DNA from: an uncultured Prevotellaceae bacterium
GTDB taxonomy: Bacteria; Bacteroidota; Bacteroidia; Bacteroidales; Muribaculaceae
Assembly: GCA_900318645.1 (NCBI GenBank)
Contig: ONLH01000014.1
Location: 17,064-81,063 of the forward strand
Length of the DNA: 64,000 bases
Reading direction: 5' to 3'
In this document: positions 25,601 to 62,668 of the stretch, piece after piece
Position numbering within the stretch: the stretch's first letter is position 1
How the letters are laid out: each line of letters opens with the position of its first letter
Notes under the pieces: model-generated
Seen by the model: the letters and a program-made list of their open reading frames with translations, nothing else
The model's database searches: none
What the model was told of the DNA's origin: nothing
Program-made: the position numbers and the translations under genes

Positions 25601-26031
25601 TGCTCACCATCGACGACAACTGGAAGGAACACCTGCGTGAAATGGACCAGTTGCGCCAGAGCGTGCAGAACGCAAGCTATGAGCAGAAGGACCCGCTGGT
25701 AATCTACAAGACCGAGGCCTTCAACATGTTCAAGCAGATGGTTGGTATCATGAACGGCAAGTCCATCGCCATCCTCATGCGTGGCCAGATTCCCGAGGCA
25801 CCGCCCCAAGAGAACGTCCAGCAGAATGAGCCGCAGCCTCGCCAGCAGCGCTACAGCGAGGGTCGTGGCGGTCAGCCCGATCCCAGCCGTCCCAACGCGC
25901 CCGTCGGTCCGCGTCCCCAGGGTCCCGTAGGCCCCATCCGCAACGAGGGTCCCAAGATCGGCCGCAACGATCCCTGCCCCTGCGGTAGCGGCAAGAAATA
26001 CAAGAACTGCCACGGCCGCGGCCTGGCATAA
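22699..26031 (+). CDS. secA: Protein translocase subunit SecA
   Basis: [42 protein letters not shown]-terminal SEC-C motif [19 protein letters not shown]. Confidence 0.99.
25981..26031 (+). repeat. 51-bp direct repeat, left copy (last 17 codons of secA including the stop)
   Basis: tgcggtagcggcaagaaatacaagaactgccacggccgcggcctggcataa, identical to 29694-29744. Confidence 0.97.
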
Positions 26032-26051
26032 GCCAGTTCTTAAACCACACA

Positions 26052-26087
26052 ATTCACGCCAGCCCCCAAGTGAGGACTGGCGTGAAT
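26052..26087 (+). terminator. secA terminator hairpin
   Basis: attcacgccag...ctggcgtgaat followed by gtttatt. Confidence 0.7.
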
Positions 26088-26149
26088 GTTTATTATCAGA
26101 CTTCAGGAAAAAACGTTTATCCTAGATATGACTAATCCTTTAATCGCTT

Positions 26150-26425
26150 TTATTTCTTGCCATAATGGGAATGCATGGCGAGAATGTGAACAATAATACG
26201 GTCATCATCAACGGTGTAAATGAGGCGATGCTCTCGATTAATGCGACGAGACCACATCCCGGCAAGGGAAAAGCGCAGGGCTTCAGGTTTGCCGATGCCA
26301 GTGTATGGGTGTTGGGCTATATCAGCAAGCAGGAGCTTGATACGATTCACAACTTTTACATTACCGCTCTTGACAAAAGCATTGTAATGGTCAATCGCCG
26401 TTTGAGTAAGGACTATTTGGTACAT
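26150..26425 (-). CDS. yoeB: Txe/YoeB family toxin
   Basis: PYTGIGKPEALRFSLAGMWSRRINREHRLIY; overlaps the antitoxin stop. Confidence 0.93.
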   Translation of the reverse strand: MYQIVLTQTAIDHYNAFVKSGNVKVVNRIKLLLADIAQHPYTGIGKPEALRFSLAGMWSRRINREHRLIYTVDDDRIIVHILAMHSHYGKK

Positions 26426-26703
26426 GAGACACGGTCAAGCAATTGGTCTATTGATTCTCCTTCCTGTTGTGCTGTCACTCGACCATAAACGATATCATCC
26501 TCGGCAGCCACAAGCGATTGCATGAGCTGCGGGCGTTGCAACACAAACTCTGTCTCCATGATAGCATTATAATCCTCAAGGCTAATGACCACAACACTCT
26601 CGGCCCCAGGGCGGCTTACAATCAGCGGCTCATTATCAGCCGCCACTGCATCAAGAAAACTCTTCAAATTGTTCCTCAAATCAGTATAATTGGTCGTTTT
26701 CAT
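26413..26703 (-). CDS. yefM: Phd/YefM family antitoxin
   Basis: MKTTNYTDLRNNLKSFLDAV..DNEPLIVSR...VVVISLEDYNAIMET (ATG 26703). Confidence 0.92.
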   Translation of the reverse strand: MKTTNYTDLRNNLKSFLDAVAADNEPLIVSRPGAESVVVISLEDYNAIMETEFVLQRPQLMQSLVAAEDDIVYGRVTAQQEGESIDQLLDRVSCTK

Positions 26704-26725
26704 AATATCTCCTTTTAATTCACAG

Positions 26726-26754
26726 CACAAAGATAAGTACTTTTTTCAGTACTT
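26726..26754 (-). promoter_or_regulatory. TA promoter (-7 TATCTTTG) with adjacent inverted-repeat operator
   Basis: aagtact-tttttc-agtactt at 26735-26754 directly abuts minus-strand TATCTTTG; YefM-type antitoxins autorepress through such palindromes. Confidence 0.7.
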
Positions 26755-27112
26755 GCAAGCTTCTCACCAAAATATCAGCAAGTTTTATAACTTTTTGTTA
26801 TTAAGCCTTGTAAAACACACATAATTCCATTATTTTTGCCACCGATTAAGGCAACTATAGTCTTAATCGCGAACATCGTTGAACAAAAAGAAGCGTATTG
26901 CTTTTACTTGTAACAGAAAACGTAGGAAATTTTCTAAAAGACGCAAGTATGGCGATGCGGCTTCCACGCTACGGCGTGGGCTGCAATTTCCATATCTTCG
27001 TCTGCTGGTATCTTACGACCATCTGTTAGAGGTGTGGCGATTCAGTTCACGCTTCTATTTATATAATTAAATCGCCCCTGAGAACTGCACTGGCAATAGG
27101 AGACAAATTTGT

Positions 27113-29005
27113 ATGAAAACACTAAACCCAATCTTACGCACCATCCTGCTGACCCTCACTCTCGTTAGCACCGCCACCACCGCTTTCGCCTACTCCTTTA
27201 TGGTTAATGGCATCTATTACATTATAAATGGTGATGAAGCAACTGTAACATATAAAAGACAATACTCAGAATATGTTGGTAACAATATTTATCATACATA
27301 TTACGAAACTGATTGTTCTGGAGATGTTATTATTCCAGAAACTGTCACATTCAATGGTAAAACTTACACAGTTACAGCTATTGGTGATTACGCATTCTAT
27401 AATCGCTATTCATCTTCTTCGTTAACATATATAAATATTCCAAATACAGTCAGAACAATTGGAATTAATGCGTTTTATAATTGTGCTGGGCTTAAAGAAA
27501 TCACAATCCCAGTCTCCGTAACTTCTATAAATGATTATACGTTTTATGGTTGTAAAGGATTATTATATCTGACTGTTCCAAATACGATAACTTCAATTGG
27601 CAATTATGCTTTTTATAATTGTAGTAAATTAGCTACTTTATTCATCGGGAGCTCAGTAACAACTATAGCATCTTCAGCATTCTCTGGATGTCCATTATCA
27701 TCTATCACCTGCTATGCTATAACTCCACCATCTACTGATGGTTTCTACGATTACTCTGCTAATTTATATGTTCCAAAGGAATCTGTTGAACTGTATCGGA
27801 CAACATCTGGATGGAACTATTTTACAAATGTCTATGGATTTGGGAATGATTCTTTCTCTATTCCTGATGAAACGTCATTCCATGGTGATACTATTGTGAT
27901 TCCCGTATCCATGCAGAATGAGAGTACGATTACCGCATTCCAGACGGATGTTTATCTGCCTGATGGATTTGAATTGGTTAATGTAAATGGTGAGTATCAG
28001 GTAAGTCTCTCTGACCGCAAGGGGCGTGACCATGTCATCATGGTGAATGATGCGCCCGATGGAGCTTTGCGCGTGTTGAGTTATTCACCGACCTTGAAGG
28101 CCTTTAAAAACAATGAGGGTGAGTTGTTCTATATCACCATCAAGGTACCCGAGGGTGTCAGTGGCACGTTCCCCATTTGGTTAAGAAACACGATATTGAC
28201 CTCTACTGATGAGGAAGAACTTTATGCCATTGACGCATTGAGTAACGTGAGTGTCACTAACATCATCAAGGGTGACGCAAATATGAGCGGTGGTATCACT
28301 ATCGCCGATGTGGTAGTAACAGCTAAATATATTCTTTTCCAAAATCCTGAGCCATTTAACCTTGAGGCTGCAGATATGAATGGTGACGGCAAGATTACGA
28401 TCACTGATGTTGTAAAGATTGCTAATCTTGTGCTTGACCAAGATTATGATGAGCCCACTAACATGCGCATGATGACGTCAAACGTGGTTGGCGACCGCAT
28501 GAGTGGAGAGGTTATCGGCAACACAGTCTGCATCAATCTGGACAATGATATGGAATATACTGCATTGCAGCTTGACTTGACCTTGCCCGAAGGCATGACG
28601 GCAAGCGATTTTGCACTGACTGAGCGCGCTAGCAGCCTGGGCCTTAGCATGAAAGACAAGGGCAACGGTAAAATCCGCGTTCTTGCTTACACCCCTAATC
28701 TGAAAACCATCAAGGGCAACGAGGGCACGCTCTTGACCTTCAATGTGGATGGCACAAGGGGCGATATCAAGGTTGATCGCATTGAAGTGGTAAACCTGAA
28801 TGGAGAAAGCACCCATCTGCAAGGCTTTACCATTGCAGCTATCACCCCGACTGCATTGAAAGAGATGGCCACAGGAAAGGCTATCTCCAGCGTCAATTAC
28901 TTCAACCTTGCAGGTCAGCAAATGACCGAGCCCGCAAGTGGTGTGACAATTGTTGTCACCACCTACAGCGACGGGTCACGCTCCACCAGCAAAGTCGTCC
29001 GATAA
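27113..29005 (+). CDS. Secreted BspA-type LRR_5 protein with cohesin-like, dockerin, second cohesin-like and T9SS-like C-terminal domains
   Basis: Signal peptide; IPxSVTSIGxYAFYNC repeats; TIVIPVSMQN..TITAFQTDVYLPDG; GDANMSGGITIADV...ADMNGDGKITITDVV; CTD GKAISSVNYFNLAGQ...IVVTTYSDG. Confidence 0.85.
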   Translation: MKTLNPILRTILLTLTLVSTATTAFAYSFMVNGIYYIINGDEATVTYKRQYSEYVGNNIYHTYYETDCSGDVIIPETVTFNGKTYTVTAIGDYAFYNRYSSSSLTYINIPNTVRTIGINAFYNCAGLKEITIPVSVTSINDYTFYGCKGLLYLTVPNTITSIGNYAFYNCSKLATLFIGSSVTTIASSAFSGCPLSSITCYAITPPSTDGFYDYSANLYVPKESVELYRTTSGWNYFTNVYGFGNDSFSIPDETSFHGDTIVIPVSMQNESTITAFQTDVYLPDGFELVNVNGEYQVSLSDRKGRDHVIMVNDAPDGALRVLSYSPTLKAFKNNEGELFYITIKVPEGVSGTFPIWLRNTILTSTDEEELYAIDALSNVSVTNIIKGDANMSGGITIADVVVTAKYILFQNPEPFNLEAADMNGDGKITITDVVKIANLVLDQDYDEPTNMRMMTSNVVGDRMSGEVIGNTVCINLDNDMEYTALQLDLTLPEGMTASDFALTERASSLGLSMKDKGNGKIRVLAYTPNLKTIKGNEGTLLTFNVDGTRGDIKVDRIEVVNLNGESTHLQGFTIAAITPTALKEMATGKAISSVNYFNLAGQQMTEPASGVTIVVTTYSDGSRSTSKVVR

Positions 29006-29020
29006 TATAATCGTCTCCCC

Positions 29021-29680
29021 ATGATGAAAAAACTTATATTAGTCGCGGTCATGGCGGTGGCACTTAGTGCCACTGCTGCCAACCGCTTTTACCTCCCGAA
29101 CTTCACCATCGCAGTTGGTGAGACCATGCAGTTGGCGATGATTTTGGAAAATGACGAACTGTTCACAGCTTTCCAAACAGATTTGATACTTCCTCAAGGA
29201 TTATCGGTAGTAGAAGATGATGGTGATTACCTCTTTGATTTGACCAGCCGCAATGCCAGCGACCAAGTTATTATCAGCAAGCTGCGACCTGATGGGGCCC
29301 TAAGGATGGAATCCTTCTGCATGAGCGTGAGACCTTATTCAGGCACGAGCGGGACGCTTGTCGTCATCAACCTAACTGCAGACCAAAGCTTTACTGGTCC
29401 AGCAACTATAAAATTGAAGAACTCATTTTTCTGTACTATAGAGGGTGTTGAATTCATCCTTCCTCAAGAGAGTTGTGAGGTACAATTACTGCCACAGCAG
29501 ATTAAAGGTGATGCAAACGGTGACGGAAAAATGAGCATCAGCGACGTGACCTGGGTCATCAACTATCTGTTGGTGGGATGCAGCTCATCATTCCACATCG
29601 AGAATGCTGATATCAACGATGATGGCAACATCAGTATCGCCGACGTGACAGCATTAATCAATATGCTCTTGCAGGAATAG
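29021..29680 (+). CDS. Secreted cohesin-like + dockerin protein
   Basis: Signal peptide; ILENDELFTAFQTDLILPQG; GDANGDGKMSISDVTWVINYLL...ADINDDGNISIADVTALINMLL. Confidence 0.82.
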   Translation: MMKKLILVAVMAVALSATAANRFYLPNFTIAVGETMQLAMILENDELFTAFQTDLILPQGLSVVEDDGDYLFDLTSRNASDQVIISKLRPDGALRMESFCMSVRPYSGTSGTLVVINLTADQSFTGPATIKLKNSFFCTIEGVEFILPQESCEVQLLPQQIKGDANGDGKMSISDVTWVINYLLVGCSSSFHIENADINDDGNISIADVTALINMLLQE

Positions 29681-29693
29681 ACACATTCGGCAA

Positions 29694-29744
29694 TGCGGTA
29701 GCGGCAAGAAATACAAGAACTGCCACGGCCGCGGCCTGGCATAA
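29694..29744 (+). repeat. 51-bp direct repeat, right copy (orphan secA 3' end)
   Basis: Exact match to 25981-26031; 13 bp after the dockerin gene stop. Confidence 0.97.
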
Positions 29745-37518: not shown

Positions 37519-38526
37519 ATGAAGAAATTATTATTTACACTTGTTGCTCTGCTGACAGTAGATAGCATGTTTGCTCAGGAGAACTACCTCTATATTCCTG
37601 ATTTTGAACTGACTCAAGAGCAGGCTGAAGCTGGCGTGCAAGAACAGGCTCTCTATGTTGTGGCTCACTTCGACCAGTATGTAACTACTGTAGATTGGAC
37701 CATCAATCTCCCTGAGGGCATTGAGTTCGTATCTGGCGTTCTGTGCAATACAGCAAAGCCCCACTGTTACATGTATGTTATTGATGAGCATGATGAAACG
37801 GATGAATTCGATGTGGTTCTGACCCTTGTGCGCTGGGATCCGGAGCTGTTCGGTGAGTATCCTCACTTCATCTTCACTACTACTCGGGGTGCCTTCCTGT
37901 GCTACAACGAGGATGGTAGCGTATGCTACGGTGCTCCCAAGTGGGGCGGCGATGGTGTCGAGTTCAGATTCTATCGCATAGTGGTCAAGATTGCTCCGGG
38001 CTTCACTGGTGGTAACATCCTGATACACACCGAGCCCTCTTGCACCGACGATCCCCGTGGCAACACCTGCACCGGTGGTGAATGGGACAAGGTGTGCCCG
38101 ATTACCGTCGAGCAACCCGCAACTCAGCCCGCTCCTACTCCCACCCTCAGCTGGGACGAGGAGACCTACACCATGACTGCTTCATGCGCTGACCACGAGG
38201 TTGTCCTGATGATCAACGGCGTTGCTGTTGAGAACCCTCATACCGTGATTCAGACCTATGAGGATCAAGAGATTACCTTCGAAGCCTACACCAAGGCTAA
38301 CGCTGACGAGTCCTCCAACAGTGAGACCGTTCGCGAGACCGTTATCGTTCCCGCAATGCCCGTAGATCCCGAGACCGCTATCAAAGAGATGAACGCTGGC
38401 AAGGCTATCGCTAACGTGCGCTACTTCAACATGGCCGGTCAGGAGATGCAGGAGGCTAACGGCATGACCATCGTCGTTACCACCTACACCGACGGTACCA
38501 CCAACGCCGTTAAGGTGAAGAAGTAA
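37519..38526 (+). CDS. Secreted protein: cohesin-like N-domain, small Ig-like domain, T9SS-like CTD
   Basis: ATG 37519 MKKLLFTLV; YLYIPDF...WTINLPEGIEF; CTD GKAIANVRYFNMAGQ...IVVTTYTDG, similar to the CTD of 27113. Confidence 0.7.
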   Translation: MKKLLFTLVALLTVDSMFAQENYLYIPDFELTQEQAEAGVQEQALYVVAHFDQYVTTVDWTINLPEGIEFVSGVLCNTAKPHCYMYVIDEHDETDEFDVVLTLVRWDPELFGEYPHFIFTTTRGAFLCYNEDGSVCYGAPKWGGDGVEFRFYRIVVKIAPGFTGGNILIHTEPSCTDDPRGNTCTGGEWDKVCPITVEQPATQPAPTPTLSWDEETYTMTASCADHEVVLMINGVAVENPHTVIQTYEDQEITFEAYTKANADESSNSETVRETVIVPAMPVDPETAIKEMNAGKAIANVRYFNMAGQEMQEANGMTIVVTTYTDGTTNAVKVKK

Positions 38527-48230: not shown

Positions 48231-51200
48231 TTAGTTTTTTCGGATGAAGTTATAGTCGCCTGTGATGTCGTTGAAATAGACATCATAGATACCCTCCTTG
48301 ACCGGCACATTCATGCCATTTTGAACACTCCTGCCCCATGGGAACTGATTGGTGCCCCAGTTGAAGTCCCAATTATTATCGGCTGCAAATTTGATTTCTT
48401 CATCTGCAGTAACGATGAAATCCCTGAAAAACCAGTCGTGGTTCTCCTTCTCGGGATTGAGGTCTTCCATGTTGTAGTCTTGGATGGTCACATCCCAGTA
48501 ACAGTGAGGGCCAACGATAATAATTGATTGATACACCCCGGCACTAGAGCCATCATAGGGCGTAATGCTGAATTCATCGGTCCTGGTATCCAAGGTGATG
48601 GTATAATAACCGCTGTTTTCCATAGTGATAGCACTATTGCCAACATTAAGAGCGCCACGAACATAGTTTCCATTATTGTCAACGGTCCAACCATCGTCCC
48701 ACCTGCCAGGCGTGTGCACGAGGAAGAAGGCATCAGTTCCTCCGAAATAGCCCGTATAGGTGAGCACGCCACGGCCTTGACTGTTAAACTCGCCGAGCGG
48801 GTACAGTGGAATCAGGCCTCTACCGATACTGCTCTCACTATTCATCCACGGGGTGCTTCCTATAGAAGAGCCCATCAGGTACCACATGTCCATAGGTACA
48901 GGTTCTGGCCAGTTGCCACTCAGCAGATAATTGATCAGAGCGGTCACGTCACTGATATTCACCTTGCCATCTTCATTTGCGTCGGCAGCGTTCACGTTCA
49001 CAACGGCAGCATTGCCACTGAGCAGGTAGTTGATGAGAGCGGTCACATCGCTGATGTTGACTTTTCCATCGTCGTTCACGTCACCGCGAGTAAATTCTAC
49101 GGGGAAAATGGTCTCGGTGATATGGTTGAACTTTTTCCAGACATTGGCTTGACGGTATGCCGCGGCACAGCCGTTAGGGACGTTCAGCCAGACATTGCTG
49201 TAGTGGGCAGGGATAAAGGGTTCATAGTATTGAGACGTGTGTGAATCTATATGGGTCAGACACGTGGGTGGCGTCGTTGCTTTGACGTTAAGTGTCGATA
49301 GGGTCGGCACGTTATAGAAGGCATTGTAGCCCAACTCGGTGAGCGTAGCTGGCAGGTCAACAAGCGACAACGAGGTGCAACCGTTGAAGGCGCTGTTGCC
49401 AATGGTCGTCACACCGTGGGGCACAGCCACCTCGGTCAACGACGAGCAGTCAAGGAAAGCAGAATGTTCTATCCGCCTAAGGCTCTTAGGCATAAAGACA
49501 GCCGTCAATGCCGTTGCGCCACGGAATGCTTCGTAATCGACGACCTGTGTACCATCGGGCACGGTATAGATTGTACTATGACCATCGGCAAAGGCCACCA
49601 GCCGCTTTTTGTCCTTGGAGAAAAGAATGCCGTCCACACTGCAATACTTGGGGTTAGCGCTTGAGACATTGATCGCTTGCAAGGCTGGATCATAACAGAA
49701 GGCGTCATTTCTGATACTGTCCACGCTGGCAGGGATGTCCACACTAGTCAATTTGTTGATGTGGGAGAAGGCATAACCCTTAATTTGCTTGACGCCATCC
49801 CTCAAGATGAGTTTCTCGAGATTGGCACAATTATAGAAACTGTAATCATCAATCAACTGGACGGTGAAGGGGACCTCGGCACGAATCATCTTGTTGATGT
49901 GTGCAAAGATATGGTCCTGCATCTCGGTCACAGTATAGAGCTGGCCCAGGTAAGCCACCTTAGGGGAGATGCCCGGATCCACCAGGTCATTGCTGGTGAT
50001 TCCACTCAACTTGACGTTCGGGTTGCTGTTAAGCACAGTGAACGTGAGGCTATCGACGGTGAACGTGTTGCCACTCGACAGGGGTGAAATCTGACTGACA
50101 TTGTATTGGAATACTTGAGAGTTCCAGTTCATCGACTGGTAGGTGCCCACCGCATTGCCAGGTACAAAAATATCTGTTGCGTCTAAATTGGCTCCCACAC
50201 CATAGAAGGCGTTGCCTCCTAACTGAGGAGGTGTTGCGCCGGCAAAGGTGATTTCCTTAAGTTCAAAATCCATCTGGAAGGCCAAGGCTGCAATATAGTT
50301 GAGTGTCGATGGCAGGTAGATGCTATTAAGGTTATCGCAACTGGCAAAAGCATTGGTTTCGATTCTCTCCAATCCCTCGTCAATGACCAGTCGCTCCAGA
50401 CCAGAATACATAAATGTCTGTTCGTCAATCACTTTGACACTTCCTGGAATATAAACAGACTTGAGGAGAAAACTGTTGGAAAATGCGTTATAGCAGATTG
50501 AATCGGCTGAATTCAGTACGGAGTAGTGCTTATCGGGGCGCCCACATGGATATTGCAAAAGCAGCTTGCCACCACTGGTGTACAAGACGCCATCATCACT
50601 CATGTAGTTCTGATTCCCGTCAGCTACATCTATGCGTACCAACGAGGCGCAATAGCACAAGAAGTTATTGCCAATATCATTAACACTGGCAGGGATGGTG
50701 AATGTGGTCAATTGATCGCAAGAAGCAAATGCCCAAGAACCGATTGTCGTGACGCCTTCGGGCAGGGTCACCGATTCCAGCTGAAGACAACTGATGAACG
50801 CTCTAGGCATGATGATTTTCACCCCGGCAGGAATCTGATAGAAAGAACCACTCTTATTGGACGGGTATTGCAACAGGGTATCCATTGCTGCAGAGTACAA
50901 TACACCATCCAGGGAACAGTAATGCGTGTTGGCACTGTTGACGTTGATGGCGGTCAATGAGGTGCAATCAGCCAGAATACCCAGTTCAATGGTTGTCACA
51001 CTGGCAGGAATCATGATTGACTCCAGTGCCGAACAGTTCTCAAAAGCATTGTTCCGGATAGCCTCGACGCCTTCTTGAATAGTGACAGACTGCAGACTCT
51101 CACAACCATAGAAGGAAAAATAGGATATTTCCTTGGCAGAGCCTGGAATCGTGATGGATGTCAAAGCCGTACAGTAGGTGAAGCACTGACGAGGAATACT

Positions 51201-52118
51201 GGTAAGTTGATTGGACAACGTCACGTTTGCCAAATTACCACAACTCATAAAGCAGAACTCACCCAGGGTGGTCACGCTATTGGGGATGACGATAGACGTT
51301 AGGGCCGTACACTGGTTAAATGCAGCATAATCAATCAATGTAACCGTGCTCGGAATGGTGACAGCATTAAGACTGGGAGATTGCCTGAAAGCCATGCGTC
51401 CCACTGCAGTCACCGTGTAGGTCTTGCCGGCATAAGTCACGGTTGACGGAATCGTGATATTGCCCGAGTAGTAGTTATAGTTCTGATCGCGATAAGTCAC
51501 CTCGACAGTATTGGCGCCCGTGACATTATAGTAGATGCCGTCCACCATGAACTTGGACGTTTCTTTAATCTTGCTGAAATTGGACCATGGTGTGGTACCC
51601 TGATAACTGCTCTTTGATCCCAAGGGGACATTCAGTGTCGCGAGGGAATAGGTAGAGGCATCAAAGTTGTTGACGTTGGTTGAGCGAGCCGTCGTCCACA
51701 GGCAGTTTACGGTTTCAAGCGAGGAGCACCCCTTGAAAATGTTCTGATACATGGTCACCACCGAACTCGGAATGGTGATGCTGGTCAGTGACGTGCAGTT
51801 CATGAAGGCTTCATTCATGATATACTCGATATTCTCAGGCAACCTGATGCTGGTAAGGCCGGTGCAGTCCTTGAAAGCCTGGTAGCCAATACTAGTGACG
51901 GTATAGGTATCACCATTGTAGGCCACCGTTGGCGGGACCACAATATCCCCGCTATAGGAATTAAAATTGCCGTTGTTTTGTACCGTGACTGAGGTCTGAT
52001 TACTGTTAATCGTGTAATAAATGCCATTCCTCACGAAGTCATAGGCACTGGCCGGCATTGCCAGTGCGAGACACGCCATGATGGTGGCCAATGTCTTGAA
52101 AAGTAAAATCCGTTTCAT
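48231..52118 (-). CDS. Large secreted BspA-type LRR_5 protein with dockerin and SusE/F-like C-terminal domain
   Basis: ATG 52118 MKRILLFK; many IPxSVTxIGxxAFxxC repeats; duplicated GDVNDDGKVNISDVTALINYLLSG; C-terminal IKFAADNNWDFNWG...YDVYFNDITG. Confidence 0.87.
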   Translation of the reverse strand: MKRILLFKTLATIMACLALAMPASAYDFVRNGIYYTINSNQTSVTVQNNGNFNSYSGDIVVPPTVAYNGDTYTVTSIGYQAFKDCTGLTSIRLPENIEYIMNEAFMNCTSLTSITIPSSVVTMYQNIFKGCSSLETVNCLWTTARSTNVNNFDASTYSLATLNVPLGSKSSYQGTTPWSNFSKIKETSKFMVDGIYYNVTGANTVEVTYRDQNYNYYSGNITIPSTVTYAGKTYTVTAVGRMAFRQSPSLNAVTIPSTVTLIDYAAFNQCTALTSIVIPNSVTTLGEFCFMSCGNLANVTLSNQLTSIPRQCFTYCTALTSITIPGSAKEISYFSFYGCESLQSVTIQEGVEAIRNNAFENCSALESIMIPASVTTIELGILADCTSLTAINVNSANTHYCSLDGVLYSAAMDTLLQYPSNKSGSFYQIPAGVKIIMPRAFISCLQLESVTLPEGVTTIGSWAFASCDQLTTFTIPASVNDIGNNFLCYCASLVRIDVADGNQNYMSDDGVLYTSGGKLLLQYPCGRPDKHYSVLNSADSICYNAFSNSFLLKSVYIPGSVKVIDEQTFMYSGLERLVIDEGLERIETNAFASCDNLNSIYLPSTLNYIAALAFQMDFELKEITFAGATPPQLGGNAFYGVGANLDATDIFVPGNAVGTYQSMNWNSQVFQYNVSQISPLSSGNTFTVDSLTFTVLNSNPNVKLSGITSNDLVDPGISPKVAYLGQLYTVTEMQDHIFAHINKMIRAEVPFTVQLIDDYSFYNCANLEKLILRDGVKQIKGYAFSHINKLTSVDIPASVDSIRNDAFCYDPALQAINVSSANPKYCSVDGILFSKDKKRLVAFADGHSTIYTVPDGTQVVDYEAFRGATALTAVFMPKSLRRIEHSAFLDCSSLTEVAVPHGVTTIGNSAFNGCTSLSLVDLPATLTELGYNAFYNVPTLSTLNVKATTPPTCLTHIDSHTSQYYEPFIPAHYSNVWLNVPNGCAAAYRQANVWKKFNHITETIFPVEFTRGDVNDDGKVNISDVTALINYLLSGNAAVVNVNAADANEDGKVNISDVTALINYLLSGNWPEPVPMDMWYLMGSSIGSTPWMNSESSIGRGLIPLYPLGEFNSQGRGVLTYTGYFGGTDAFFLVHTPGRWDDGWTVDNNGNYVRGALNVGNSAITMENSGYYTITLDTRTDEFSITPYDGSSAGVYQSIIIVGPHCYWDVTIQDYNMEDLNPEKENHDWFFRDFIVTADEEIKFAADNNWDFNWGTNQFPWGRSVQNGMNVPVKEGIYDVYFNDITGDYNFIRKN

Positions 52119-58360: not shown

Positions 58361-58711
58361 TTACCAACTGCCGTTGAGCAGGAAGTTGATAGTAGCGGTC
58401 ACATCTTCAATAGCAATGCGTCCGCTCCCATCCACGTCAGCATTTGCGGTACTGAATGGTGTGACACTTCCACTCAACAAGCTCGCTGATGACCTTCACT
58501 CGCCTTGGGCCATAGCACTGGCAACGTTGGCGACACCATCTTTACCACGGGCTACGATGCAAGGATTATCAACAATATCAATATAGAGTAATTCTTCACC
58601 TTCGCCCTCGGTGCAAATAGAAACCTCATATTTGCCAATTTCATAAGAAATCACAGGAGGTTCAGTAACATCAAGTGCCCATACCAAGCTGCTTGATAAC
58701 AGCAACATCAA
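58361..58711 (-). pseudogene. Degraded Ig-like + dockerin secreted-protein gene
   Basis: Frame TEPPVISYE...LLYID..NPC..RG interrupted by TGA at 58496-58498, then resumes in frame with half a dockerin, ADVDGSGRIAIEDVTATINFLLNGSW. Confidence 0.65.
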
Positions 58712-58927: not shown

Positions 58928-61900
58928 CTATTGAGCCAAGCGCAAGCCAATAGCGGGATGGCGATACGTCGGCGAACAACTCATACGGTGGGAAACGCGG
59001 CAATTGACATCACCATAGCCCCATCCTCCACCACGGGTAACCCTGTTGGAGCCCGAAGCTGGACCTGTGGGATTGACCTGTGCTGCACTGCTATATGAAC
59101 CATACCAATCCTGGCACCATTCATAGACGTTACCACTCATATCATATAGGCTCAGCTCATTGGCAATCTTCAGTCCGACAGGATGGGTTGTGTAAGCACT
59201 ATTACCAGCTGTGCTAGTCTCATCATAACCACATCCCCACCAAGCGACTTCGCTGATCTTATTGCCACCGGAATACTTATAGCCCTGGCTCACACCGTCA
59301 CCACGTGCTGCATATTCCCATTCAGCCTCGGTGGGTAAGCGGAATTGCTGCCCAGTCAATTCATTCAGCTTAGTGATAAAATTCTGGCAATCATTCCAGC
59401 TGACATTTTCCACCGGTCGCTGCAAATCACCTGTAAACATGCTGGGATTGCTGCCCATGACGGCCTGCCACAGCGCCTGGGTCACTTCAGTCTGACCGAT
59501 GCTGTAATTTGATAAGGTCACCAAATGGGCCGGCTTTTCATTATTGGCCGCATCTGTGCCTTGTTCGCTGGTAGCGCCCATCGTGAACGTGCCACCCAGC
59601 ACGGGGACCATAGTGAATGAAACACCGTTTACTGTATAGACCTTTGTAGCATTTACAACGGTTACAGGCAACTGGATATAGGTGTGGCTGTCAATGTCGA
59701 TAAAGGTAACATTAGTTGTACCCTCGCCCATTCCAGTCAAGATAATCGACTCACCGTCAAGGCGACAGTCCACTATATCGGGGCAGCTACCCACACTATA
59801 ATTGCCACAACCGTTTCTGATGTTAACCCGTACTTCCTCGCCGACAGCCATGACCACCACGCTTTCAGACAGTCCCACTTGGGCATCGGTGATAAATTGG
59901 CCCGCAAGTTCCTTGACCTCGGGGACTCCAAGGGCGCGGTTATAGATACGCACCTCATCGAGGGCACCATTCATGGGATTCCACCAACTGGTGGTCTTGA
60001 AGCGGCCAAGGTACAGGTCACTGGCGTTCATCAAAGAATAGTCCACGGGGGTTATCAGGAATCTTTCCTGAATGAGATTTCCATTGACATACAGTCGTGC
60101 TTTGCGCTTGCTATAACTATAGGAAACGGCCACATGAACCCAGCGGTTCAAGTAATTGCCATTGTTCAACAGATCGCTTGATCCGATGTTGGCCCATTGA
60201 CACTGGTCACCCGTAGCACCGCACCACACGTGTAGCCCGTCATCATTGCCACTGAACATCATAGCTGGGCCTGTGCGGTCACTAGACTTGGCAAAGATAC
60301 AGTGAGAGCCATTCTCCACAATGCTGCCGGTGCCATTCATACCCTTCCAATCCATGGGCTTCACGAAGCATGAGAACGTGAAACCGTCATTGAACTGTAA
60401 AGAGGGGCTGTTGGGCACTCGAATGAAGCCAGGACTAGCCGTGCCACCGAAGCGGTACGCACCACTTTGCTCGCCTGTGACACCTGTTGTTGCGGTTACA
60501 TTAGTAGCGATACCATGGTTGCCGTTACCGCTCATGTCTTTTGCATCACCATCAAGAGGATAATAGGCCACAAGGCCGTCTTCCAAGTCAACAGTTGTCT
60601 CTCCATCCAGCAGATAGCCAATCATTGTTGTCAAATCTGTAATACTCAGTTCACCCGAATAAGGAGAATCTTGGTTGGCTAACAAGTAGTTGATTATGGA
60701 TGTCACGTCGTCGATATTGAATTTGCCATCGCCATCCTCGTCACCAAAGATCGTAGGCATAGCTGTCAAATCAACACTCTTGAGGATATTATCACCTAAT
60801 TTAATCGTTAGAACGGCATTTTGTTGTGTTATGGATGGGCTGAAAACGGGTGGTGTGTAGGTGATGTCTATATCTGCACCCTTCTCACTGCAGACGGATG
60901 ACACGGATACAGTTCTTTTTACAGTGAATCGGGACGCGTCGGGACCTATAACCATCAGTTGCAGATTGTCCTCAGGGTAATTGGCAATAGCATTGAGATG
61001 GATTGTCCTGGTCTTGGTTGTGCCATATTTAACGTGGCCGAATGCAACTTTTGCAGGATTAACAGTCAAATCCATGTTTTCATTCCTCATAAACCAGAAT
61101 CCTGCAGTGCCGTCATTGTTGATGACCATATCTGTCACGGGTTTGCCCAGATTTCCTGCATTGCCTGTAATGTCGCCATTTTCCTCTAAATAGAGTATTG
61201 TTGCCGGAGAAGAGTCATCGGTTAAGGAATTACGGGTGCCTTCGGGCCACAAGTCGCCATTTTCGGTATCATCTGATAAAACACCGTCTGCTGGCATGAT
61301 GGTCATCAACTGGATATCTTGGTCATTAGGGCGATAACCTGTTCCACCGCACCAACGATCGTGGTCATACGATACATGAGTGACCATGATGCCCTCTTCA
61401 GGAAGGAACTTGTCCCACTTTAGCTTTTTACGGTTCTCATAGATGAAGTATTCGTTGCTGTTCACATCACTAGTAACACGTACGGCTTTGTCTCCACCTT
61501 GATTCCATGCAGGAAGGGTATAGTAATGACCAGGCAAAGCTTCAGTATAATCAAACCAACCCATGAATTTTTTCTCATAAGCACTATAGCCGACAGGGGT
61601 GTTGTAATTATCACAGTGATCCCCCAGATCCATTAAACTCCATCGCCCCATTCCATATCGACCACCATAGGTTGAATCATAGAAATCCGGTAGTCCCAAG
61701 CAATGACTGAATTCATGGCAGAATGTGCCTATGCCATTAATTCCAGAAGTTTCATGATTAAGCTCATTAAAAACACCAAACTTATAGCCATAGATACCAT
61801 CTGTTATAAGATAATAGTCATCTTCTTCTTCATTGATTAAGTTACCACTACAAGGCCACACTGTATTGGTGTCATATTGATTGTCATTATTATAATTAGC

Positions 61901-62668
61901 ATATCCAGAATAAATGACCAATACCGCATCACAAAAAGTGCGTATATTATCGACTGTTTCATAAGCTTTTTCAAAAGTGGAATAATCCTTAAAATCGCCT
62001 GCATTAACAGCTAATCTAATGGCTTCTCTAACCATTTCACGAACTCGTATATCGTTTCCGTGCCCATCGTCTTCACCATAATATGGATAATCGTTAGCAA
62101 GCTTATACGGTCCCATAACCACAAATTGCGGTTGATACATATCATTAGATTGGTCTTTAAAATACTTCCCTACACTTTTTTCTCCAGTAAGCATGGACTC
62201 TTCTATTTGCTCTTTTGTGTATTTGAACGACGTATTAGGAAATTGCACTAAAATAACTGGTAAATATCTCTTACCTTTCGCAGGACAGCCATCCTCGGCA
62301 TTACTTCCACCAACACGACTTGGTGCAGTAAATCGAGTGGAAGTATTTTTGTATTCATATTTAATGTTAGTTCGCTGGGCTTCAATGAATGCAGTCTCAA
62401 CGGCAGTGCGGAATTCAGCATCGTGAGCGCGGACCAATGTACGTCCTGTCAGCGAAGAGTGATAATACAGATCGCCGTCATTACCAGTAGAAAGCATCAG
62501 TCCATCTTGTGTCAAAGTGGCGTGGCTTCTTTCGTCTCCGATTACTTGAAAAGTCACGACCTTGCCGTCACTTTGTATAAAAGTATGCCAACCAGGTTCT
62601 GCCTTATTGGCACGAGCTACAGCAATACAGGTAAAAATGATGATTATTAATAGGAATAATTTTTTCAT
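58928..62668 (-). CDS. Secreted M6-family metalloprotease with Ig-like, dockerin, LamG-like and C-terminal FGE-sulfatase (C-type lectin fold) domains
   Basis: ATG 62668; CHEFSHCLGLPDFY; GDEDGDGKFNIDDVTSIINYLL; LVAYYPLDG...LDEVRIYNRAL; FRLPTEAEWEYAARG...DMSGNVYEWCQD...RGGGW. Confidence 0.87.
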   Translation of the reverse strand: MKKLFLLIIIIFTCIAVARANKAEPGWHTFIQSDGKVVTFQVIGDERSHATLTQDGLMLSTGNDGDLYYHSSLTGRTLVRAHDAEFRTAVETAFIEAQRTNIKYEYKNTSTRFTAPSRVGGSNAEDGCPAKGKRYLPVILVQFPNTSFKYTKEQIEESMLTGEKSVGKYFKDQSNDMYQPQFVVMGPYKLANDYPYYGEDDGHGNDIRVREMVREAIRLAVNAGDFKDYSTFEKAYETVDNIRTFCDAVLVIYSGYANYNNDNQYDTNTVWPCSGNLINEEEDDYYLITDGIYGYKFGVFNELNHETSGINGIGTFCHEFSHCLGLPDFYDSTYGGRYGMGRWSLMDLGDHCDNYNTPVGYSAYEKKFMGWFDYTEALPGHYYTLPAWNQGGDKAVRVTSDVNSNEYFIYENRKKLKWDKFLPEEGIMVTHVSYDHDRWCGGTGYRPNDQDIQLMTIMPADGVLSDDTENGDLWPEGTRNSLTDDSSPATILYLEENGDITGNAGNLGKPVTDMVINNDGTAGFWFMRNENMDLTVNPAKVAFGHVKYGTTKTRTIHLNAIANYPEDNLQLMVIGPDASRFTVKRTVSVSSVCSEKGADIDITYTPPVFSPSITQQNAVLTIKLGDNILKSVDLTAMPTIFGDEDGDGKFNIDDVTSIINYLLANQDSPYSGELSITDLTTMIGYLLDGETTVDLEDGLVAYYPLDGDAKDMSGNGNHGIATNVTATTGVTGEQSGAYRFGGTASPGFIRVPNSPSLQFNDGFTFSCFVKPMDWKGMNGTGSIVENGSHCIFAKSSDRTGPAMMFSGNDDGLHVWCGATGDQCQWANIGSSDLLNNGNYLNRWVHVAVSYSYSKRKARLYVNGNLIQERFLITPVDYSLMNASDLYLGRFKTTSWWNPMNGALDEVRIYNRALGVPEVKELAGQFITDAQVGLSESVVVMAVGEEVRVNIRNGCGNYSVGSCPDIVDCRLDGESIILTGMGEGTTNVTFIDIDSHTYIQLPVTVVNATKVYTVNGVSFTMVPVLGGTFTMGATSEQGTDAANNEKPAHLVTLSNYSIGQTEVTQALWQAVMGSNPSMFTGDLQRPVENVSWNDCQNFITKLNELTGQQFRLPTEAEWEYAARGDGVSQGYKYSGGNKISEVAWWGCGYDETSTAGNSAYTTHPVGLKIANELSLYDMSGNVYEWCQDWYGSYSSAAQVNPTGPASGSNRVTRGGGWGYGDVNCRVSHRMSCSPTYRHPAIGLRLAQ

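Follow-up and report, generated by a model that had tools for sequence, protein, structure and literature searches.

The window analysed here is a 64,000-nucleotide stretch (C27:17064-81063 of the assembly designated G000) of an uncultured Muribaculaceae bacterium, and the subject of this report is a pair of genes at positions 27113 to 29680, P0001 and P0002, which have the same orientation and are separated by 15 bp. We read the pair as the conserved scaffoldin-plus-adaptor cassette of a genome-wide, non-cellulosomal cohesin-dockerin system for surface display in a rumen Muribaculaceae bacterium, and we give this reading a probability of roughly 0.7. Textbooks present cohesin-dockerin assembly as the device of cellulosomes in Gram-positive bacteria; the sequence comparisons presented below support its redeployment on the predicted type IX secretion system (T9SS) of a Gram-negative bacterium, with cargo other than carbohydrate-active enzymes (CAZymes). 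The two genes and their predicted modules are as follows.

27113 to 29005, plus strand: P0001, predicted anchoring scaffoldin/adhesin of 630 aa, with a Sec signal peptide, BspA-type leucine-rich repeats (LRR), cohesin 1, a dockerin, cohesin 2, and a short T9SS C-terminal domain (CTD)
27374 to 27712, plus strand: LRR_5 (BspA-type LRR) region of P0001, aa 88 to 200 (Pfam LRR_5, 114 bits)
27845 to 28252, plus strand: cohesin module 1 of P0001, aa 245 to 380 (Pfam Cohesin, cut-out segment)
28268 to 28432, plus strand: dockerin of P0001, aa 386 to 440 (Pfam Dockerin_1, 35.8 bits), an atypical variant (VK/VN)
28475 to 28837, plus strand: cohesin module 2 of P0001, aa 455 to 575 (our own iterated profile, E 3e-31), also present in orthologues
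28850 to 29002, plus strand: predicted short T9SS CTD of P0001, a 50-residue tail (TALKEM...VNYFNLAGQ...GVTIVVTTYSDGSRSTSKVVR) of the ctdB family
29021 to 29680, plus strand: P0002, predicted adaptor of 219 aa, with a signal peptide, a cohesin (29081 to 29485), a dockerin (29504 to 29671), and no CTD

Full-length scans of the window proteins against Pfam and NCBIfam miss every cohesin and the CTD, and these modules were revealed only by cut-out segments, hidden Markov models (HMMs) that we iterated ourselves, profile comparison, and fold searches. When cut out, cohesin 1 of P0001 scores 27.2 bits against PF00963 (cut-off, 24.1 bits), and it scores 26.3 bits in the genome scan; the other modules lie below the Pfam Cohesin cut-off and are tied to this module by the iterated HMM. 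The AlphaFold2 model of P0002, built from 37 homologues, has a mean pLDDT (predicted local distance difference test) of 85.6 and a pTM (predicted template modelling score) of 0.77. Its Foldseek matches 1 to 33 in the PDB are all cohesins, with E values from 1e-5 and target template modelling (TM) scores of 0.33 to 0.75 (0.62 to 0.75 for the best six), and they include OlpC of Clostridium thermocellum, NagJ and GH33 of Clostridium perfringens, a cohesin of Archaeoglobus fulgidus, and ScaB, ScaC, ScaE, and ScaG of Ruminococcus flavefaciens. A profile of ten modules from G000, compared with PDB sequences, likewise places cohesins at the top (5n5p_A, E 8e-4) and aligns with the NagJ cohesin over its full length (E 0.02). 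The dockerin of P0002 is C-terminal (aa 162 to 217) and scores 46.8 bits against Pfam Dockerin_1, and among the PDB sequences, type I dockerins of known structure are matched by both kinds of dockerin half (best E, 7e-9). A preliminary description of the window, made from the DNA letters alone, had proposed that P0001 and P0002 each combine a cohesin-like module with a dockerin, and the Dockerin_1, PF00963, HMM, and fold evidence bears this out. The dockerins are canonical duplicated EF-hand modules, with Pfam scores above the cut-off in P0001, P0002, and a third window protein, P0004; as for the cohesin fold, the N-domain of P0002 is predicted to adopt it, and the fold of another window protein, P0003, is ambiguous.

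The same description had assigned a common T9SS-like CTD to P0001 and P0003. Neither Pfam PF18962 nor NCBIfam matches the tail of either protein, and PF18962 passes its cut-off on one open reading frame (ORF) only in the entire genome, which makes it unusable for counting short CTDs; two HMMs, ctdA and ctdB, were therefore built, and for the latter we started from the tails of P0001, P0003, and a paralogue. The ctdB family of short domains (about 50 aa) comprises 44 ORFs, with the domain at the extreme C-terminus in all of them and the consensus xGIxEM..GK.VAGVRYFNLAGQEM.EANGLTIVVTTYTDGTTSAVKVVK, variants of which include ...YYNLMGQPV..PGIYIHNGKKIVVR. The long ctdA family comprises 13 ORFs (about 75 aa) and overlaps weak PF18962 matches. 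Short and long T9SS CTDs coexist in this Muribaculaceae genome, and the solitary match above the PF18962 cut-off means that much of the T9SS cargo of this lineage escapes standard annotation. The short CTDs of Prevotella intermedia, whose cleavage and C-terminal glycosylation were demonstrated by mass spectrometry, measure 43 to 55 aa, contain a T/G-I cleavage motif and motifs B (R/K-Y..G), D (GxY or GxN, then I), and E (K..K), are predicted to form a three-stranded sheet, and occur on cargo that includes LRR and DUF285 proteins (PMC11969387). The ctdB family agrees with this class motif for motif, and the model of P0003 ends in three strands (aa 297 to 334), so that the tail shared by P0001 and P0003 fits a short T9SS CTD. 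Among the T9SS components searched for, the translocon SprA (2657 bits) and three full-length paralogues of the sortase PorU (661 to 920 bits) are encoded in the genome.

The cassette is not the only such arrangement in the genome. The iterated HMM finds 11 cohesin-like modules in 8 ORFs of G000, and P0003 and its paralogue C46_91620 raise the number of cohesin-like proteins to 10. A long or short CTD is present on five of the eight proteins found by the HMM and on 7 of the 10 overall, and on only 7 of the 203 dockerin ORFs, five of which are themselves cohesin proteins. The cohesin proteins that lack a CTD are two adaptors of about 220 aa, each consisting of a signal peptide, a cohesin, and a dockerin, and one 200-aa protein with a signal peptide and a cohesin. 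Each adaptor gene lies directly downstream of the gene for a CTD-bearing scaffoldin, namely, P0002 after P0001 (C27) and C47_8086 after C47_8747. Pfam scans detected no carbohydrate-binding module (CBM) and no S-layer homology (SLH) domain in the three proteins examined for them, namely, P0001, C47_8747, and a giant protein from C19.

The dockerins are far more numerous. Pfam Dockerin_1 gives at least 151 matches over its cut-off in G000, and our iterated dockerin HMM detects 210 modules in 203 ORFs. Genome-wide HMM scans had been suggested as a check on the preliminary description; the modules are indeed present genome-wide, on a scale that had been underestimated, with about 203 dockerin ORFs and 10 cohesin-like proteins. 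The dockerin lies within 10 aa of the C-terminus in 165 of the 203 ORFs; since it lies within 80 residues of the N-terminus in 24 and is followed by more than 150 aa in about 29 proteins, its position is not strictly C-terminal. The consensus of the 210 modules is GDVNGDGEVNIxDVTALINxLL, twice, in which G1, D2, D13, and D46 and the residues of the calcium loops show little or no variation. Both halves of any one module belong to a single type, and two major classes can be distinguished, TN (DVTALINYLL; about 95 modules) and ND (DVNAVIDIIL; about 65 modules). The dockerins on the ctdA scaffoldins or their adaptor are ND; on the ctdB side, those of C46_70195 and P0002 are TN, and that of P0001 is the atypical variant. 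The two classes are a hint, at the level of sequence, of two specificities. Contamination by Ruminococcus was considered as the source of the dockerins and rejected: the dockerin ORFs are spread over about 50 contigs amid Bacteroidales housekeeping and T9SS genes, and the assembly (3.6 Mb, 75 contigs, 91% complete) has a G+C content of 50.7% and a contamination estimate of 0.48%.

The cargo was surveyed by comparing 132 dockerin proteins with Pfam, counting the families among those listed (the top 25 per batch). LRR_5 is present in 26 of these proteins and Peptidase_C10 with an Inhibitor_I69 prodomain in 19, followed by FGE-sulfatase (or C-type-lectin fold) in 9, DUF285 and CHB_HEX_C_1 in 8 each, Peptidase_M6 in 7, CotH in 6, Omp28 in 3, α-amylase (glycoside hydrolase family GH13) with CBM26 in 3, Peptidase_S8 and Endonuclease_1 in 2 each, and GH53 and GHL10 in 1 each. 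A classical CAZyme cellulosome is rejected on this basis, the three α-amylases, one GH53, and one GHL10 being the glycoside hydrolases among the families listed for the 132 proteins. The cargo seen in the window (LRR, M6, LamG, and lectin-fold domains) had been described as non-CAZyme, and the census extends this description to the genome. Many of the dockerin genes are arranged in tandem arrays, two of which, G000:C56:39907-55799 and C53:9324-26785, contain seven each. The proteins of the C56 array are about 800 aa long and have 38 to 45% identity to a paralogue of the C10 type with a short CTD at its end, which points to dockerin cargo having been amplified at this locus in recent times.

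Outside this genome, the cohesin-like profile matches 9241 of 1.84 billion representative proteins at E≤1e-3 and 5417 at E≤1e-10, with up to 14 modules per protein. Eight of the best matches were scanned with Pfam. One of them (P0263) contains 7 Pfam-recognised cohesin stretches (112.8 bits) together with a Por_Secre_tail (47 bits), a second (P0268) combines Cohesin (76.9 bits) and Por_Secre_tail (48.5 bits), and in a third (P0269) Pfam recognises Cohesin, Big_2, and Dockerin. Of the other five, four consist of several modules, end in a dockerin, and are missed by Pfam Cohesin. Since relatives of the module family include proteins with 7 to 8 Pfam-recognised cohesins and a Por_Secre_tail, the family grades into canonical cohesins on canonical T9SS cargo. 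By sequence, the module family is widespread in Bacteroidales.

The two-gene cassette itself is found in four other species (L001 to L004), in which an LRR-cohesin-dockerin-cohesin-short CTD protein is accompanied by a signal peptide-cohesin-dockerin protein; identities are 58 to 73% for the P0001 orthologues and 68 to 78% for those of P0002. In a Prevotella metagenome-assembled genome (MAG; L005), an adaptor comes after a protein with the architecture LRR...dockerin-cohesin-short CTD, whose length is 1995 aa or more. P0002 has 146 orthologue clusters, which, where annotated, carry PF00404 only. Co-occurrence was assessed in 151 genomes of the same GTDB family, representing 35 genera, with at most 20 to 39 scored candidates behind each per-genome dockerin count. 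The cohesin-like profile matches 52 of these genomes (23 of the 35 genera) and Dockerin_1 matches 47; both are present in 37, the cohesin-like module alone in 15, the dockerin alone in 10, and neither in 89, which corresponds to an odds ratio of 22 and a p value of 2e-14 in a Fisher test uncorrected for phylogeny. Within the genus of the window, both modules occur in 5 genomes and neither in 2. A large dockerin expansion is seen only in this genus and in one genome of another genus (first-look candidates, 310, 211, 142, 89, and 62), and among 301 genomes sampled from the order, G000 leads by a wide margin in dockerin candidates.

These data bear on the proposal that the modules do not pair at all, the cohesin-fold modules being generic β-sandwich spacers of T9SS surface proteins and the dockerins being calcium-binding tails that stabilize their proteins, or bind glycans or other ligands, and that were spread by duplication. 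The very low sequence similarity to characterised cohesins, the existence of genomes with one module only, and the many dockerins without recognisable cohesins in the literature (PMC9863278, PMC4035507) would be expected if this were so. On the other hand, the two modules strongly co-occur, fusions of cohesin and dockerin and adjacent genes carrying them recur and are conserved in five other species, the family grades into Pfam-recognised multi-cohesin scaffoldins, and the dockerins keep the symmetric duplicated helix that is typical of type I dockerins that bind cohesins. We consider it improbable that the modules do not pair.

A different use of the dockerins would be interspecies docking, in which the dockerin proteins would be made for scaffoldins of other members of the rumen community, for instance Ruminococcus, and the cell's own cohesin-like modules would be irrelevant. 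An arrangement of this kind was suggested earlier for R. albus 8, as quoted in PMC4035507, and the closest dockerin matches outside Bacteroidales are from Ruminococcus MAGs (35 to 40% identity). The genome's own cohesin modules, though, co-occur with the dockerin expansion within the genus, the scaffoldin and adaptor dockerins are of the same classes as those of the cargo, and the cargo consists of adhesins and proteases rather than fibre-degrading enzymes, which together make docking to foreign scaffoldins very unlikely.

Several observations nevertheless weigh against a scaffoldin-based display system. Most of the modules are below the Pfam Cohesin cut-off, and identity to solved cohesins is 7 to 16%. 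About 14 modules face about 210 dockerins, a low ratio, although one comparable to that of ruminococcal cellulosomes. The co-occurrence statistic does not allow for shared ancestry, and 10 of the 151 genomes have dockerins only and 15 cohesin-like modules only. In G001, a genome from another genus of the same family, there are at least 32 strong dockerin matches and no cohesin-like match at E≤1e-5; this assembly is 85% complete in 230 contigs, and either its cohesins are absent from the assembly or more divergent, or its dockerins work without cohesins. Finally, the dockerin cargo carries only signal peptides of the signal peptidase I (SPI) type and no known signal for export across the outer membrane, and extracellular docking therefore needs an additional export step.

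In the mechanism that we propose for the display system, CTD-bearing scaffoldins such as P0001 would leave the cell via the T9SS and would be cleaved by PorU and linked to a surface glycolipid. Their cohesins would then capture dockerin-tagged adhesins and proteases in a calcium-dependent manner. Adaptors without a CTD, such as P0002, would plug into a scaffoldin cohesin and add another socket, by which the assembly could be extended or branched; this role is modelled on ScaC of R. flavefaciens. The identities of the domains, the rules of architecture across the genome, SprA and PorU, the gene linkage, and the co-occurrence are seen in the sequences; cohesin-dockerin binding, anchoring, and specificity are our inference, with linkage and co-occurrence bearing on the binding.

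The destination of the cargo was addressed by a search for exchanged C-terminal modules, in which dockerins were masked and CTDs trimmed and paralogues were accepted at E<1e-10. For 83 proteins with a dockerin but no CTD, paralogues were found within a set of 31 that have a CTD but no dockerin. For example, C58_75288 (dockerin) and C62_1041 (short CTD) share 43% identity along the whole cargo, and C43_79388 (dockerin) and C63_18672 (short CTD) share 65%; both pairs diverge exactly at the start of the C-terminal module. Within one and the same family of cargo, the last module can thus be a T9SS CTD in some members and a dockerin in others. This exchange, together with the LRR and DUF285 proteins among the CTD cargo of P. 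intermedia, argues that the dockerin proteins are bound for the cell surface.

How they would get there is a further matter. SPI-like signal peptides were found in 183 to 189 of the 203 dockerin proteins and no CTD in 196, and export as lipoproteins was rejected, since at most 6 of the 203 have a plausible lipobox and most of these resemble SPI sites. No route other than the T9SS is known to us for large soluble proteins in this order, and these families otherwise carry a CTD, which makes a variant of the display system a serious candidate, in which the dockerin serves as an indirect T9SS export tag. We put this variant forward tentatively. Its steps, which are no less conjectural than the variant as a whole, would be that the cargo, having folded in the periplasm, attaches to a CTD carrier by way of the carrier's cohesin, directly or via an adaptor, and that the complex passes through SprA and is anchored at the surface. 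The plain SPI signal peptides, the scarcity of lipoboxes, and the missing CTDs speak for such a route, as do the 83 dockerin proteins that are paralogous to CTD cargo, with an identical junction and presumably the same destination, and the concentration of cohesins on CTD proteins; in addition, the T9SS exports folded proteins. The preliminary description had raised the dockerin as a possible export tag in passing, and the Sec signal peptides, the lack of lipobox and CTD, and the paralogy to CTD cargo lend that possibility indirect support. Against it, a precedent for hitch-hiking on the T9SS was not found in the literature searched, and we know of none; the carrier genes are few for about 200 cargo genes, so that very high carrier expression would be needed; and assembly in the periplasm is pure conjecture, as vesicles, lysis, or an unrecognised signal could also export the cargo. 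It is accordingly possible, but doubtful, that the dockerin is a second-order T9SS sorting signal that replaces the CTD, with passengers crossing the outer membrane only on cohesin-CTD carriers.

The three PorU paralogues are encoded at the following positions.

G000:C40:74299-77613: PorU paralogue, 920 bits
G000:C40:79358-82609: PorU paralogue, 661 bits
G000:C25:119403-122711: PorU paralogue, 857 bits

The two on C40 lie within 2 kb of each other, and the three might be divided between long and short CTDs or between different glycans used as anchors. Besides the full SprA, a partial frame resembling it (G000:C41:64917-66281; 495 bits, model positions 760 to 1199) contains an in-frame TGA and is probably a fragment or pseudogene.

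Four further loci of the window carry modules of the system.

37519 to 38526, plus strand: P0003, with a signal peptide, a Cys-rich remote cohesin-like domain (37570 to 38133), a small Ig-like domain, and a predicted short T9SS CTD (38371 to 38523)
48231 to 52118, minus strand: P0004, with a signal peptide, seven LRR_5 blocks, a TN-type dockerin (48921 to 49085; 57.5 bits), a tail of about 229 aa, and no CTD
58361 to 58495, minus strand: dockerin-gene remnant in stop-to-stop frames, one second repeat (half-dockerin) that ends in ...NADVDGSGRIAIEDVTATINFLLNGSW and a stop
58928 to 62668, minus strand: P0005, with a signal peptide, an M6 metalloprotease, an internal dockerin (60608 to 60745), LamG, an FGE-sulfatase/C-type-lectin fold, and no CTD

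P0003 has no Pfam match. Its AlphaFold2 model (pLDDT 82.5) is multi-domain, and when Foldseek is run with the whole model, Ig-like folds of a generic kind dominate and cohesins occupy ranks 4, 12, and 20. In hhalign, the N-domain matches the cohesin-like profile of the genome with 96% probability (E 6e-9, 113 to 127 columns), and an HMM iterated from this domain converges on the cohesin set. P0003 is taken as a remote, Cys-rich relative of the cohesins, on weaker evidence than P0001 and P0002; with this qualification, the proposal that the genes at 27113 and 37519 encode cohesin-like proteins with the same CTD stands, both tails belonging to the ctdB family. Neither ctdA nor ctdB matches P0002, P0004, or P0005, which is in keeping with their earlier description as proteins with a signal peptide and a dockerin but no CTD. 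The dockerin of P0005 is degenerate in its second repeat and loop and scores 22.4 bits when cut out (cut-off, 22.9 bits); the HEFSH motif of the M6 metalloprotease is intact, and the FGE-sulfatase domain spans 58928 to 59700. The C-terminal 229 aa of P0004, which follow the dockerin (48231 to 48917), are weakly SusE/SusF-like (21.8 bits, under the cut-off). The dockerin pseudogene reported at 58361 corresponds to the half-dockerin remnant in the minus-strand frames.

The P0001-P0002 cassette is situated inside a 3.7-kb islet (26032 to 29744) next to secA, which also contains a toxin-antitoxin gene pair.

25981 to 26031, plus strand: left copy of a 51-bp direct repeat, identical to the last 16 codons and stop of secA (repeat search; SecA domains)
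26150 to 26425, minus strand: YoeB-family toxin gene, inside the islet (Pfam YoeB_toxin, 84.1 bits)
26413 to 26703, minus strand: Phd/YefM antitoxin gene, inside the islet (Pfam PhdYeFM_antitox, 65.8 bits)
29694 to 29744, plus strand: right copy of the 51-bp direct repeat, which closes the islet (repeat search)

The repeat is perfect and duplicates the 3' end of secA. The G+C content of the islet is 36 to 51%, with a minimum of 36 to 37% at 27000 to 28000, compared with 55 to 61% in secA and 53 to 59% just downstream. No integrase was found in the islet (25981 to 29744), and an ORF on the plus strand at 26165 to 26488 was rejected as spurious, the genuine genes there being the minus-strand YefM/YoeB pair. 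In L002 to L004, the cassette does not adjoin secA; it has therefore moved, and the scaffoldin and adaptor genes appear to move as a unit. The remaining genes of the window are housekeeping genes (SecA, a BamA-type POTRA protein, RibD, PrmC, and glycogen synthase). The nearest relatives of G000 that have a name are MAGs from the rumen, which bear the labels Sodaliphilus sp., Muribaculaceae, or uncultured Bacteroidales.

Among the closest characterised systems is the cellulosome of R. flavefaciens, which likewise belongs to a rumen organism with hundreds of dockerin proteins and far fewer cohesins. P0002 resembles ScaC of that species, an adaptor with a single cohesin and a dockerin, and R. flavefaciens cohesins are among its top structural matches at an identity of merely 7 to 16%. 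The anchoring scaffoldin ScaE is attached covalently by a sortase, for which the PorU "sortase" is the proposed equivalent here. Unlike R. flavefaciens, the present host is Gram-negative, anchoring would depend on a predicted T9SS CTD rather than on LPXTG or SLH, glycoside hydrolases are nearly absent from a cargo made up of adhesins, proteases, and lectin-fold proteins, the scaffoldins scanned have no CBM, and the cargo must cross an outer membrane. With glycoside hydrolases not the main cargo and neither CBM nor SLH in the scanned scaffoldins, the system is not a cellulosome. The glycosidase complexes of C. perfringens (NagJ/GH84C; 2jh2, 2w1n, 2o4e, 2ozn) are similar in that cohesin and dockerin are used outside cellulose degradation, and their cohesins head the full-length matches in the structure search (target TM score, 0.75) as well as in the search by sequence profile; these complexes differ in comprising a handful of secreted enzymes of a Gram-positive bacterium, with no T9SS, no surface scaffoldin, and no 200-member dockerin set. 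The amylosome of Ruminococcus bromii also organises non-cellulolytic enzymes by cohesin-dockerin pairing, and three dockerin-bearing GH13 + CBM26 amylases are present here, whereas amylases are a small minority of the cargo and the host is Gram-negative. A dockerin-bearing GH13 has been noted in the rumen Muribaculaceae C941 (PMC9863278). In P. intermedia, every short-CTD cargo protein has its own CTD (PMC11969387), whereas most proteins of the same classes in G000 carry a dockerin, and the two modules are combined only in a few cohesin-bearing proteins.

Dockerins of Bacteroidetes have been recorded in rumen surveys (PMC6487960, PMC4035507, PMC6071333), and rumen metagenomics has repeatedly described those of Bacteroidota as "without cohesin" (PMC9863278, PMC6071333, PMC6487960). 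We attribute these reports to cohesins that score under the cut-offs usual for Pfam or dbCAN models. No description of cohesins on T9SS cargo, or of a cohesin-dockerin system in Bacteroidota, was found in the literature searched. If passengers do hitch-hike on cohesin-CTD carriers, this would be the first adaptor-mediated recruitment of cargo known for the T9SS, and it would explain why Bacteroidota dockerins looked orphaned.

A Gram-negative commensal of the rumen would thus use cohesin-dockerin assembly on the scale of a cellulosome, with about 200 dockerins, to handle adhesins and proteases in connection with the T9SS, and this raises the question of whether the T9SS exports passengers without a CTD. 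In practical terms, the modules may provide orthogonal cohesin-dockerin pairs for surface display in Bacteroidota. For the biology of the rumen, the system points to a large unannotated surface proteome of C10 and M6 proteases and BspA-like adhesins, which may be relevant to protein breakdown and colonisation.

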